Source: Escherichia coli (lineage in GTDB: Bacteria; Pseudomonadota; Gammaproteobacteria; Enterobacterales; Enterobacteriaceae). From it: a stretch of DNA of 1,983 nt. The DNA is taken from NCBI RefSeq assembly GCF_044324875.1, contig NZ_CP172192.1; one strand, 5' to 3'. The notes under the pieces were generated by a model. That model had not been told where the DNA came from, did no database searches, and saw nothing but the letters and a program-made list of their open reading frames with translations. Below are positions 1-1,983 of this stretch, piece after piece (position 1 is the first letter of the stretch; the number at the start of each line of letters is the position of its first letter). Position numbers and translations under genes: made by a program.

Positions 1-33
1 TGCGCGGTCCGACATTCCCACATCCTGTCCCGA
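1..33 (-). repeat. Inverted-repeat arm, proximal 33 bp (reverse complement of 289..321), truncated by the window start
   Basis: Exact 33/33 reverse-complement match to 289..321. Together with 1933..1983 it reconstitutes the full 84-bp arm if the window ends are joined. Confidence 0.95.
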
Positions 34-288
34 AAATTCCCGCCGTTTCTCGGTTTTTTGAGCGTCGCAGACCGCACGACAAACGAAACGAAGTGTAGTT
101 TGTATGAGTGCGCACTTCGTGAGATTCCCCGACTGCCAGTTTGTCGATCGCGCGGAACAGCTGTGGCACGAAAACGGCAGAATGATTTGCTGTCCGGTTG
201 CCAGAACTGCGCGCTTACGTGGAGGGCGGCGCGGCGCAAAAAACTGCCGACATTGCGCCAGTGTTCCGGTGACACAAACCCGCAGAAA

Positions 289-372
289 TCGGGACAGGAT
301 GTGGGAATGTCGGACCGCGCACGCTCGCTCAGACATTCCCCACCTGGTCAGGGCTTCGCCCCGACACCCCGC
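289..372 (+). repeat. 84-bp arm of a perfect inverted repeat (internal copy)
   Basis: Compared by eye base by base: reverse complement of 322..372 equals 1933..1983 and reverse complement of 289..321 equals 1..33, with no mismatches. Identity stops at 373 versus 1932 and at 288 versus 34. Confidence 0.95.
301..343. other. Nested stem-loop inside the repeat arm
   Basis: GTGGGAATGTC (301..311) pairs with GACATTCCCCAC (332..343), one extra C as a bulge, around a 20-nt GC-rich loop. The same structure exists in the other arm across the window junction (1964..1973 with 11..19). Confidence 0.6.
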
Positions 373-513
373 CAACGCCTCACGGCACGCGAAAAAATTC
401 CGCGTACCGCTCACCGTTCTTGAACTCGTCAAACAGAAAATCGCGGGGCCCCGCGCCTCCGGCGTGGGTTCCGATTTTGTGATTGACGACGGCACGGGGA
501 AAACGCTGGGTAT

Positions 514-568
514 GGTGGTTGGTGTCACGGAGTGAGGCCAACCACCTGCAAGACGGTTTTTTGTTGTT
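514..568 (+). other. Stem-loop followed by a T-rich tract
   Basis: GGTGGTTGG (514..522) pairs perfectly with CCAACCACC (538..546) around a 15-nt loop. TTTTTTGTTGTT (557..568) follows after a 10-nt gap. Confidence 0.3.
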
Positions 569-601
569 CACAAAATTGGGGTGAAAGTCTGTGGATGAGA
601 T

Positions 602-634
602 GGGTGTAAGTGGGTGGGGTTGGGAGGTTTTGGG
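602..634 (+). other. G-run cluster fitting a G-quadruplex motif
   Basis: GGG 612..614, GGGG 616..619, GGG 622..624, GGG 632..634 with loops of 1, 2 and 7 nt, plus extra G-runs at 578..581 and 602..604, within a GT-rich stretch 577..640. Confidence 0.3.
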
Positions 635-675
635 TTACTGAAAATCCAGCTCAAAATTCAAGCAAATCTCGCGCG

Positions 676-711
676 CGATCCTTGTATTTATACTTAAGGG
701 ATAACTCTAGG
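676..711 (+). promoter_or_regulatory. AT-rich island with a second nick-site-like motif; alternative dso or rep promoter region
   Basis: CTTGTATTTATACTTAAGGGATAACTCTAGG (681..711) is the only AT-rich stretch in an otherwise GC-rich window. CTTGTAT resembles CTTGATA, and TAAGGGATAACT resembles the TAAGGGTAACT that I recall downstream of the pC194 nick; that recollection is unverified. Confidence 0.2.
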
Positions 712-843
712 ATTCAAATTGGCCTCCAGCCCTTGTCCCGCAAGGCTTGAGGGCACATTTGCTCCGAAATGGGTTTAGAAGTATTCTGTCGGAAGTGGTC
801 GCGTTAAAAGCGACCCCCGCAACGAGGGCAATCGTTCGGGGGC

Positions 844-907
844 GTGACCACCTGTAGAAATTCGAATTAGTGACACGACAACACAGGTGATATGGCAATG
901 ATAACAC
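844..907 (+). promoter_or_regulatory. Candidate double-strand origin (dso) and nick region of the rolling-circle replicon
   Basis: 7-bp stem CACCTGT (849..855) with ACAGGTG (883..889) enclosing a loop that holds the perfect 10-bp palindrome AATTCGAATT (859..868). Immediately 3' are tandem TGATAT (888..893) and TGATAA (899..904), then ATAACAC (901..907). pC194-class origins are nicked at G/A within CTTGATA, and the phiX174 origin, as I recall it, contains TGATATTAATAACAC. Lies 40 to 100 bp upstream of the rep start. Assignment is by motif resemblance only. Confidence 0.35.
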
Positions 908-943
908 GTCAGATGAGCCATCGCCCACAATCGGGTGGTGCGC

Positions 944-1933
944 ATGAAAAACCCTAAACTCCAGTACCTCACTGATTATTCCCCCTCTGACGCGCCCTGG
1001 GACGCACACAGAAGCGTTTCTGACGACGTGGGAGGGATTTACCTGCTTGCGGCCGAATATGAGCGCTACGGGGCTCGTATGGCCTCCTGTGGCGGTTTAC
1101 TGCGTTTCGGGTGGTCTACCCTCAAGGAAACCGGAGAAACGCGTCTGAGGCTGCGTGAGGCGCATTTCTGCCGTGTCCGGCACTGTCCTGTCTGCCAGTG
1201 GAGGCGCTCCCTGATGTGGCAAGCCCGTTTCTACCAGTCCCTGCCGCGTATCGTGGCGGATTACCCTGATGCCCGCTGGATGTTCCTGACCCTGACCGTG
1301 CGCAACTGTGCGATTGGGGAACTGGGCGAGATGCTGAACCGGATGAATGCAGCTTTTCAGCGTATGAAGGTTCGCAAGGAGTTCCTGCCTGTTCAGGGCT
1401 GGATCCGCACAACGGAAGTTACCCGCGGCAGCGACGGCAGCGCGCATCCCCACTTCCACACCCTGATGATGGTGCCGCCCTCAATGCTATCTGGTGACGG
1501 GTACGTAAAACATGCTCGCTGGGTTGAACTCTGGCGGGAGTGCCTGCGGGTCAGTTACAACCCGAATGTTGATGTCCGGGCAGTAAAACCCCGTAAGCCA
1601 AAGGATGGCGAGTCCTTAGCCTGCGCGACCGCTGAACTGGTGCGCGGCGCAGTGGCCGAAACCCTGAAATATTCCACGAAGCCGGCTGACATGGTGGCCG
1701 ATCCTGAATGGTTCCTCGAACTGACCCGCCAGACGCACAAGCGCCGCTTTGTGGCGACCGGCGGCGCACTCAAAGACGTGCTGAAACTCGATCAGGAAAC
1801 CGACGCCGACATGGTGATCGGGGATGATATTTCCGAGGGCGACGATGACGGTTCACGCATCGCGTTCGAGTGGAAAACCGAGGTCAGAAAGTACCGTCGC
1901 TCACCGACGAAAGATAAAACTGAATCAGGCTAG
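944..1933 (+). CDS. rep: Rolling-circle replication initiator protein, HUH endonuclease of the pC194/pUB110 (Rep_1) class
   Basis: 332-codon ORF 935..1933 in the supplied track. Translation carries motif I FLTLT (nt 1283..1297), motif II HPHFH (nt 1445..1459, the HUH metal-binding motif) and motif III ETLKYSTK with Glu four residues before Tyr (Tyr codon 1670..1672), the arrangement known for pC194 RepA. Start is ambiguous: GTG at 935 or 938, or ATG at 944 preceded by GGTGG (934..938) at Shine-Dalgarno spacing; I chose 944. Stop TAG 1931..1933. Confidence 0.9.
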   Translation: MKNPKLQYLTDYSPSDAPWDAHRSVSDDVGGIYLLAAEYERYGARMASCGGLLRFGWSTLKETGETRLRLREAHFCRVRHCPVCQWRRSLMWQARFYQSLPRIVADYPDARWMFLTLTVRNCAIGELGEMLNRMNAAFQRMKVRKEFLPVQGWIRTTEVTRGSDGSAHPHFHTLMMVPPSMLSGDGYVKHARWVELWRECLRVSYNPNVDVRAVKPRKPKDGESLACATAELVRGAVAETLKYSTKPADMVADPEWFLELTRQTHKRRFVATGGALKDVLKLDQETDADMVIGDDISEGDDDGSRIAFEWKTEVRKYRRSPTKDKTESG

Positions 1934-1983
1934 CGGGGTGTCGGGGCGAAGCCCTGACCAGGTGGGGAATGTCTGAGCGAGCG
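1933..1983 (-). repeat. Inverted-repeat arm, distal 51 bp (reverse complement of 322..372), truncated by the window end
   Basis: Exact 51/51 reverse-complement match to 322..372. Begins at the last base of the rep stop codon. Confidence 0.95.

Follow-up and report, generated by a model that had tools for sequence, protein, structure and literature searches.

The DNA analyzed here (the window) is a complete 1983-nt circle from Escherichia coli, and among its closest described counterparts is pBuzz, which Moran and Hall reportedly presented in 2019 (Plasmid 101:10) as a cryptic rolling-circle plasmid with two inversely oriented origins of transfer (oriTs). In two papers that describe pBuzz, it is given a length of 1982 bp and two oriT copies, with neither a relaxase gene nor accessory genes (PMC9282650, PMC11389934), and the first describes its mobilization at high efficiency by a co-resident B/O plasmid (PMC9282650). 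According to papers citing the pBuzz study, relatives of pBuzz have oriTs of other incompatibility (Inc) types. Comparison of the window with known plasmids revealed that its 1983 bp are 100% identical to the Salmonella Enteritidis plasmid pB (NC_005002.1) and to one E. coli plasmid, and that pBuzz of E. coli 838B (NZ_MF156267.1) has 99.5% identity to it. PLSDB types records of the pB/pBuzz kind as having a ColpVC replicon and as "mobilizable". Of 5,426 complete E. coli genomes, 45 (~0.8%) harbor a plasmid that spans 80% or more of the window. The plasmid is thus a known element of a known kind, and its oriT pair and mobilization are already published. What we describe below, namely homology to a filamentous (Ff) phage origin, a MOBQ-like site, an architecture of upstream open reading frame (ORF) and antisense RNA, and orientation isomers, are extensions of known mechanisms.

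Our subject is the stretch 34–934 of this circle, next to the initiator gene rep (944–1933, plus strand). We consider it highly probable that in pB/pBuzz, a minimal hitch-hiking rolling-circle plasmid, this stretch makes up a cis-acting half that encodes no protein. The sequence evidence for this comprises the absence of a coding signal, the homology and context of the oriTs, Ff homology with strand-specific structure, conservation of the double-strand origin (dso), the position of the rep promoter and the helices of the rep leader. In an earlier, sequence-only reading of this DNA it had been proposed that function resides in RNA or DNA structure, and this is broadly borne out by the oriTs, a probable Ff-type single-strand origin (sso), the dso core and the predicted leader helices.

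No credible protein gene was found in 34–934, apart from a possible leader peptide at 898–957. This agrees with the sequence-only reading, as does the extent of non-coding DNA, which had been put at half of the replicon; the remainder outside rep, which contains 34–934, measures 993 nt or 50% of the circle. The non-coding halves of ten family members were aligned and substitutions were counted per codon position. Between the window and its relative L013, rep has a strong excess of third-position substitutions (14:11:67), whereas the counts were flat in ORF 104–535 (20:14:14). The minus-strand ORFs 380–571 (23:19:21) and 707–1009 (13:15:14) were also flat, and in the comparison with relatives a third-position excess was absent from all candidate frames of 34–934. 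Frameshifting indels were observed inside the ORFs (1-nt deletions in L011 and L012, and 8-, 2- and 1-nt indels in L007), and no ORF of at least 30 aa in 34–934 had a Pfam or NCBIfam match. The rep product matches PF01446 (Rep_1) with an E-value of 7.5e-85 over profile positions 2–252 of 253, and the HUH motif HPHFH and the catalytic tyrosine motif LKYSTK were seen in its translation. The earlier description of all ORFs as arginine-rich and devoid of ribosome-binding sites applies to most of them. Their Arg content is 9–17%, except for a 35-aa ORF at 215–322 (5.7%), and their Shine-Dalgarno (SD) sequences are weak (duplex dG weaker than -5.5 kcal/mol), except for two. One is the minus-strand ORF 775–972, with an SD-like GAGGGGGA (dG -11.1), in which third-position bias was not found and which has a 1-nt deletion inside it in pVCM01; the other is the 19-codon ORF 898–957, with the strong SD AGGTGAT (dG -9.8).

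The order of the elements that we propose for the non-coding half is a spacer with a MOBQ-like site (~54–122), oriT-B (289–372), the sso (373–565), a G/T-rich tract, the dso, the rep promoter and the rep leader (Table 1). Relaxosomes of co-resident I-complex plasmids (B/O, K, Z, I1) would act in trans on both oriTs, and transfer begun at either oriT would lead with the 255-bp spacer. Rep would nick the plus strand at CTTG/TA (slash, nick) and the plus strand would be displaced, whereupon the Ff-type hairpins on this strand would recruit the host RNA polymerase and so provide a primer for the complementary strand. As the plus strand is also the strand transferred from oriT-A, it would be convertible to duplex in a recipient. 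Rep synthesis would probably be limited at translation: a hairpin would keep the SD of rep inaccessible until ribosomes translating the 19-codon upstream ORF open it, and an antisense RNA of ~85 nt would base-pair with the part of the leader that includes the SD of that ORF.

Table 1. Features of the 1983-nt circle, including the stretch 34–934 (a slash in a sequence marks a predicted nick).
Feature	Position	Strand	Details
oriT copy A, first part	1933–1983	+	I-complex (B/O, K2/Z type); runs on into 1–33 over the circular junction
oriT copy A, distal inverted repeat	within 1933–1983	+	GTCGGGGC..GCCCTGAC
oriT copy A, second part	1–33	+	18-nt inverted-repeat arm and nick region CACATCCTG/TCCCG
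Spacer between oriTs	34–288		255 bp; two modules with a break near 200/201; inverted in some isolates
Candidate third oriT, MOBQ type	54–122	+	Inverted repeats and TGTATGAGTGCGCACTTCG
oriT copy B	289–372	-	Reverse complement of copy A; inside 34–934
sso module, 5' part	373–425	+	CAACGCCTCAC, hairpin "a" (382–410), TCACCGTT
sso, homologue of Ff minus-strand origin	426–565	+	Hairpin-B homologue 426–489; hairpin-C homologue 514–546
sso, details	T547; 556–561	+	Predicted primer template start; T-run
G/T-rich tract	567–660	+	Upstream of dso; sequence variable; GC skew +0.37
dso core	676–704	+	GATCCTTGTATTTATACTTAAGGGATAA; pC194-type
Hairpin between dso core and rep promoter	722–757	+	Stem GCC(C)TTG...CAAGGC kept, loops/arms altered in relatives
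rep promoter	759–787	+	-35 TTGCTC (759–764), 17-nt spacer, -10 TATTCT (782–787)
Candidate countertranscript	805–891	-	~85 nt, predicted start near 891; complementary to rep leader; crosses helices 2 then 1
Leader helix 1	814–842		11 pairs, 5 of them compensatory; 100% paired across 13 sequences; also predicted by RNAalifold on its own
Leader helix 2	849–889		CACCTGT...ACAGGTG; 3' arm includes SD of upstream ORF; RNAalifold
Candidate leader peptide (upstream ORF)	898–957	+	19 codons; SD AGGTGAT at 885–891
Candidate antisense promoter	898–927	-	-35 TGGGCG (927–922), 18-nt spacer, extended -10 TGTTATCAT (906–898)
Leader helix 3	919–940	+	Hairpin over rep SD GGGTGG (932–937); 8 pairs, 95% paired, 3 compensatory
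rep	944–1933	+	Rep_1 (pC194/pUB110 family) rolling-circle initiator; outside 34–934; strong third-position substitution bias

The dso core was found unchanged in relatives down to 69% Rep identity. Its 25-mer 680–704 occurs exactly in 23 contigs of a set of species-representative genomes, among them small contigs (mostly ~2 kb) of Acetobacter, Gluconacetobacter, Legionella, Salinivibrio and Vreelandella, and the 23 always have a Rep_1 gene 145–370 nt downstream on the same strand, save for one Xenorhabdus contig (L031), in which the dso core is present and no Rep_1 match was found. A scan of IMG/VR with the 25-mer gave no match. On the rep-sense strand, the window sequence ATCCTTGTAT...TAAGGGATAAC is similar to ATCTTGATAATAAGGGTAAC of the pC194 origin, a likeness that suggests that Rep nicks at CTTG/TA, with the predicted break between 684 and 685. 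The hairpin at 722–757, which separates the core from the rep promoter, possibly corresponds to the "enhancer" of the pKYM origin, which comprises 173 bp with a core and a downstream, HU-bound enhancer (PMC4439123). Upstream of the core, the composition of the tract 567–660 is conserved in all lineages and its sequence is not, other G/T-rich sequence having taken its place in L007, L011, L013, L014 and L017. No structure of single-stranded DNA was detected in 567–660 (z +0.18 versus shuffles), and a G-quadruplex at 604–626 (GGG-N7-GGG-N1-GGGG-N2-GGG) was rejected as its motif is not conserved in relatives.

Several additional observations were made on the dso and its carriers. The 25-mer is exact in plasmid-sized contigs of the five genera named above whose Rep proteins are only 57–69% identical, the nick site being far more conserved than the Rep protein, and the Gluconacetobacter contig (L018) is a tandem dimer. 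Short contigs in genome assemblies of marine or environmental bacteria (Kineobactrum, Marinobacter, Rhodosalinus and Vogesella; L022, L023, L027, L028, L039) have Rep proteins 93–97% identical to those of enteric plasmids of 2058 bp and 1934 bp, and leaders identical to those of the same enteric plasmids; laboratory or reagent contamination seems likelier for these contigs than true hosts.

The rep promoter had the best or second-best plus-strand score in every lineage scanned, at a constant distance from the dso core, and was the best in all lineages but two enteric relatives (L008 and L032); relatives have the consensus TTGACA at its -35. A second plus-strand candidate (GTGACA/TATGGC, near 870–897) was rejected since its score was lower and it was not conserved. 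Transcription from the rep promoter is predicted to start near 794, which would give the rep mRNA a leader of ~150 nt with a structured stretch at 794–943. For 13 distinct leaders, RNAalifold and our own pair counts concurred on three helices. Overall, 94.8% of the cells were paired and 8 pairs covaried, and 0 of 500 shuffles reached the covariation score. The pairs of helix 2 are invariant, and this helix is therefore uninformative for covariation. Helix 3 has U.G and G.U pairs in the plus sense only, and its use of G.U pairs therefore indicates a structure of the RNA sense or of the plus strand. Helix 1, when read on the minus strand, would be the terminator stem of a candidate antisense RNA, and a minus-strand T-run follows it in L015, L016 and L035.

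The upstream ORF opens 46 nt ahead of rep and, in a different frame, reaches its stop codon 14 nt inside rep. Its start (-46), length and stop are kept in plasmids of the window type and of the L015 type while the peptide has diverged, and equivalents of 20 codons and 8 codons are present in the pKYM-like L017 and in Legionella plasmids, respectively. We hypothesize that 898–957 may be a translated regulatory leader peptide serving translational coupling. In four diverged long-leader lineages, the top-scoring candidate promoter of the minus strand was located 42–46 nt from the rep ATG. Variants of its extended -10 (TGTTATCAT, TGGTATATT, TGTTAGAAT) retain TG, TA and the final T and vary in non-critical letters. 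The 5' end of the candidate countertranscript would overlap the SD of the upstream ORF. An Rfam search of the whole window, with E-values up to 1, returned no match. These features of the leader suggest, and do not prove, copy control by antisense RNA. The sequence-only reading had offered an antisense RNA as an example of regulation in this half, and the conserved minus-strand extended -10 at 42–46 nt upstream of the rep ATG, together with the covarying hairpins, makes that idea plausible.

A serious alternative, although we consider it the less likely one, is that copy number is set by Rep itself, either by repression of its promoter through dso binding or by its inactivation after each round, and that the leader hairpins serve only the stability or translation of the mRNA or belong to the DNA "enhancer" of the origin. 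Inactivation of Rep after each round is known in other rolling-circle plasmids. Control by Rep would fit with the dso core adjoining the promoter (~55 nt upstream of the -35), with the lack of a minus-strand promoter in short-leader relatives (Acetobacter, Salinivibrio) and with antisense terminators that are weak or absent in several lineages; the 173-bp origin of pKYM, with its HU-bound enhancer (PMC4439123), could also reach the promoter and helix 1. However, the minus-strand extended -10 is the best-scoring one of its strand and is at the same place in four lineages, and helix 3 hides the SD, which fits with translational control.

The mobilization region is the part for which the sequence-only reading went astray. 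Its statement that 34–934 has no mobilization function was an interpretation rather than an observation and is wrong, as 289–372 is a copy of an I-complex oriT and the near-identical pBuzz was published as mobilized by a B/O plasmid. The arms 322–372/1933–1983 and 1–33/289–321 are each 100% complementary, and on the circle they form one perfect inverted repeat of 84 bp. Within copy B the inverted-repeat arms are at 303–320 and 323–340, and the distal inverted repeat is of the 8-bp class GTCAGGGC..GCCCCGAC. The segment 286–371 was matched by >1,600 conjugative plasmids. Copy B has 95.3% identity to IncK2/Z plasmids and 79.5% to IncI-gamma/K1 plasmids, and the match stops at the SD of nikA, 15 bp before nikA/nikB (mobA/nikA in NZ_CP013024.1 and NC_022742.1). 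The nick region CACATCCTGTCCCG (YATCCTG/Y class) has the same letters in the window, IncK2/Z and IncI-gamma/K1, and the inverted-repeat arms vary between oriT types yet remain complementary. Placed by analogy with R64/RP4, from established knowledge, the nicks are predicted on the plus strand at 27/28 (copy A) and on the minus strand at 295/294 (copy B).

The spacer between the two oriTs consists of modules with different distributions. The end of rep, oriT-A and 34–200 are common to the 2.1-kb plasmids of the pJ type, among which 34–200 is ~91% conserved, and 208–288 with oriT-B was found at 89–93% identity in other backbones of 2.3 and 2.7 kb. No coding signature was detected in the spacer against relatives, and as single-stranded DNA (28–200 on the plus strand, 201–294 on the minus strand) it folds no better than shuffles; for this reason, a role of the spacer as a structured priming signal for the minus strand was dropped. 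When the spacer was searched in PLSDB with its outer flank included in the query, 74 records had it as in the window and 2 had it inverted (pVCM01, i.e., NC_019127.1 or L012, and NZ_CP039590.1). The inverted spacer is possibly also carried by NZ_AP039438.1, and the orientation isomers occur among plasmids that are otherwise 99% identical. The inversion could be due to recombination between the 84-bp repeats, mediated by a relaxase or by RecA, or to assembly ambiguity.

Part of the spacer, 54–122, has 80–90% identity to ~600 small MOBQ plasmids. In one of these, pEC8-7, the homologue is at 1013–1086, between the start of mobQ (986, minus strand) and mobC (1165, plus strand), and a divergent mobQ-mobC intergenic region is the usual place of a MOBQ oriT. 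The pEC8-7 homologue has TGTATAAGTGCGCACTTCG where the window has TGTATGAGTGCGCACTTCG. A core TAAGTGCGC is common to the small MOBQ plasmids and the RSF1010 oriT (the latter sequence was checked by BLAST against the plasmid collection), and the core of the window, TGAGTGCGC, differs from it by one substitution. For the nick-region core TAAGTGCGCC, the sequences compared were TAAGTGCGCAC in the small MOBQ plasmids, TAAGTGCGCCC in the RSF1010 type and TGAGTGCGCAC in the window. Based on these similarities, 54–122 is a possible third oriT, which would be located in the leading segment of both I-complex oriTs.

We consider it unlikely that the inverted oriTs and their spacer are a by-product of recombination or assembly, with only one working oriT that matters, 34–288 being junk and the "third oriT" a decayed remnant. 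The spacer has no significant structure, is shorter or different in relatives (L013; only ~75 nt in L014) and has a substituted MOBQ-like core (TGAGTGCGC versus TAAGTGCGC), all of which favors such a by-product, and short reads make it difficult to establish which way round a segment lies when it is flanked by 84-bp repeats. On the other hand, inverted oriT pairs are found repeatedly in the family, with oriTs of different types (B/O, I1-like, L/M-like), a recurrence that implies selection of this layout more than once, and 34–200 is kept at ~91% in the pJ-type plasmids.

An equivalent of window 62–693 was also observed at 4001–4701 of a 150-kb IncF plasmid (L006, NZ_OK236218.1), with 90% identity and between IS26 and ISKpn26. 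This fragment is a remnant of the pBuzz kind, through which a resistance plasmid has acquired oriT-like sites.

Conservation of the segment 373–565, adjacent to oriT-B, extends to relatives with as little as 69% Rep identity, and its stems have undergone compensatory changes. The 5' part, 373–425, is kept in the pKYM-like L017 and in L013–L015, where stem sequences have been exchanged and pairing retained. BLAST of phage genomes matched the core 426–565 to 5655–5750 of M13/f1/fd and to Erwinia inoviruses, on the viral strand and with weak E-values. A profile built from plasmid sequences only and searched with nhmmer (Z=2300 Mb) found M13 5625–5750 with an E-value of 2.2e-19 and Erwinia phage PEar1 with 5.6e-25. 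M13 5625–5750 is the Ff minus-strand origin with its hairpins B and C. In Ff phages the host RNA polymerase recognizes these hairpins on SSB-coated viral DNA and makes a primer there. The matched segment is located ~30 nt upstream of the gpII nick, which in M13 is at 5781/5782 (PMC11765958), and RNA polymerase is described as priming on the plus strand of Ff phage (PMC11765958).

RNAalifold analysis of eleven plasmid and phage sequences returned exactly two hairpins, 426–489 and 514–546. Their consensus has 35 pairs, with 98.2% of cells paired and double changes in 10 pairs. In controls, 0 of 500 shuffles paired as well and slid partners paired at 32–43%. Two G.T pairs are invariant in these hairpins, and the opposite strand would have A.C mismatches in their place; the fold of 426–565 as single-stranded DNA has z -4.09 on the plus strand versus -2.97 on the minus strand. 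Across the plasmid and phage sequences, 56 columns are invariant. As the hairpins fit the plus strand and the dso nick also reads on the plus strand, the element is on the displaced strand, as is required of an sso. It is likely, from this homology and structure, that 426–565 is an RNA-polymerase-primed sso, and by alignment with the primer start of f1, priming in the window would begin opposite T547. The "sso-embedded promoter" suggested by the sequence-only reading was close to this, in that 426–565 is homologous to the Ff minus-strand origin and its hairpin pair is of the kind recognized by RNA polymerase.

We consider it improbable that the hairpins of 426–565 act instead as a G4- or phiX174-type signal dependent on primase or PriA, or that they terminate transcription reading through from the side of the oriT. 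The T-run at 556–561 does follow hairpin C by 9 nt in the manner of a terminator, and a homologue is located downstream of repA in pSLT-like IncFII plasmids, a position at which R1/R100 have a primase-dependent G-site. However, the profile homology spans exactly the hairpins of the Ff minus origin in the viral-strand orientation, the G.T pairs specific to the plus strand fit with an element of single-stranded DNA on the displaced strand, and the phage search returned nothing resembling microvirus origins.

Sequences related to this origin were also noted elsewhere. The segment 373–421 (CAACGCCTCAC, hairpin, TCACCGTT) is present at 85–94% identity in unrelated tiny plasmids of 1.3–5.2 kb and may be a separate mobile piece of the sso module. 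In the pSLT-like IncFII/FIB plasmid L042 (NZ_CP027413.1), 2983–3115 is an Ff-type minus-origin homologue (profile E 1e-20). In Salmonella virulence-type plasmids this homologue follows repA at a distance of ~630 bp and is possibly the lagging- or leading-strand priming site of that theta replicon. Four relatives, L015 (CP057265.1), L016 (NZ_CP149281.1), L032 and L035, have GAGTCCACTCTGTTTAATAGTGGACTCTTGTTGC between the sso and the dso. This sequence is ~85% identical to the M13 plus-strand origin, including the gpII nick hairpin and binding repeats, and adjoins the Ff-type minus origin; it is conceivable that a filamentous phage replicates or packages these plasmids, which would then be natural phagemids.

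It is hardly credible that 34–934 encodes a small protein that could supply copy control or another function, such as the 143-aa ORF 104–535 (a "hypothetical protein" in some RefSeq records, and open in the window, pBuzz and pNMEC-O75E) or its 78-aa C-terminal part 299–535 (likewise annotated in RefSeq as hypothetical), since its codon positions are flat against 14:11:67 in rep, close relatives have 1-nt and 8-nt indels inside it, the spacer inversion in pVCM01 and the replacement of 201–341 in pJ-type plasmids split it, it has no SD (dG -1.0 and -4.3) and no Pfam or NCBIfam match, and it is superimposed on an oriT copy and the phage-type sso, each of which is conserved in its own right.

Overall, our data support the protein-free, cis-acting reading of 34–934. 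A broader reading, which we put forward tentatively and hold with considerable reserve, is that the non-coding half is a mosaic of hijack sites combined with an IncB/IncFII-like control of rep. The mosaic may consist of a captured filamentous-phage minus origin acting as the sso of a Gram-negative Rep_1 family, two I-complex oriTs and a third oriT of the MOBQ type; if this is true, a 2-kb plasmid would be transferable by two unrelated relaxase families. The control circuit may be one in which rep is regulated jointly by an antisense RNA, a leader peptide and a hairpin over its SD.

Several points weigh against these readings. The nick sites, the priming and all of the RNAs are predictions, and it is from sequence features that we infer the nick positions, priming by RNA polymerase, the antisense RNA, coupling through the upstream ORF and the MOBQ-like function. 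A strict scan for the sigma-70 consensus found no promoter anywhere in the plasmid and therefore a relaxed score and conservation across lineages were required, on which the proposed promoters rest. Three terminator-like sites were found in the plasmid, no more than the chance expectation. The tail of helix 1 in the window is only TCGCTTTTAA, a weak terminator, and the pKYM-like (L017) and Legionella lineages have no antisense terminator tail. An open frame of 19 codons is not improbable by chance, and the SD and ATG of the upstream ORF alone could explain the invariant block 883–908. A minus strand transferred from oriT-B would be without an sso in active orientation, and the proposed elements do not account for 123–288 and 567–660.

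These findings bear on the prediction of plasmid and resistance-gene spread. Small plasmids without mob genes are usually scored as non-transmissible, and gene-based tools miss such elements, whereas a single-gene replicon can move via oriT mimics served by relaxases in trans; pBuzz-like segments are already fused into resistance plasmids. The Ff-type sso offers a testable answer to the neglected question of how Gram-negative rolling-circle plasmids convert the single strand to duplex, and its homology connects the replication modules of plasmids and filamentous phages. The control circuit, if confirmed, would be a tunable control point for small, high-copy vectors.

Compared with known systems, the window matches pB and pBuzz in its Rep, in its pair of inverted 84-bp oriTs and in its non-coding half, and there is no material difference in sequence between it and pBuzz. 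Plasmids of the pKYM type (a Shigella sonnei rolling-circle plasmid; Col(BS512), e.g., L017) have a Rep_1 protein at 69% identity, an identical dso core, homologous sso hairpins, a promoter at the same position and a minus-strand extended -10 equidistant from rep. L017 differs in its leader hairpins and in having no T-tail after the antisense stem, and it is typed as non-mobilizable and is without an I-complex oriT, whereas the window has two. For the leader, the closest parallels are the CopA/tap-repA system of IncFII and the Inc RNA/repY-repZ system of IncB/IncI1, in which the SD hairpin of the initiator is opened when a leader peptide is translated, and an antisense RNA prevents this translation. 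By inference, the window is alike in its short upstream ORF overlapping the initiator start, in the initiator SD within a hairpin and in a candidate ~85-nt countertranscript with two stem-loops over the SD of the upstream ORF. RNAII of pMV158 and the countertranscripts of pT181 are rolling-circle systems to which its candidate antisense RNA can be likened. There is no sequence or Rfam relationship between the window and the IncFII, IncB, pMV158 or pT181 controls, and its RNA is a candidate only; to our knowledge, control of rep by antisense RNA, leader peptide and SD hairpin is undescribed for Gram-negative Rep_1 plasmids.

Like the minus-strand origin of the Ff phages M13/f1/fd, the sso of the window comprises two long imperfect hairpins equivalent to B and C, whose order is unchanged and which are found on the strand that occurs in single-stranded form. 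Plasmid and phage differ in initiation, with Rep_1 and a pC194-type nick site in the plasmid and gpII in the phage, and neither an Ff plus-origin nor a packaging hairpin was found in the window. With MOBQ oriTs (RSF1010/R1162 and the mobQ-mobC plasmids of the pEC8-7 type), 54–122 shares inverted repeats and, apart from the core substitution TGAGTGCGC, the (T/A)AAGTGCGC nick-region core, and the window differs from the MOBQ plasmids in this substitution and in having no mob genes. With the I-complex oriTs (R64/ColIb-P9 of IncI1, B/O, K and Z, served by the MOBP NikA/NikB relaxosome), the window shares CACATCCTGTCCCG at the nick as well as both inverted repeats, the proximal one and the distal one. 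I-complex plasmids carry nikA/nikB and the window plasmid carries neither, and it therefore depends on a relaxase in trans. Unlike the I-complex plasmids, it has two copies of the oriT in inverted orientation, and therefore either of its strands could be nicked.

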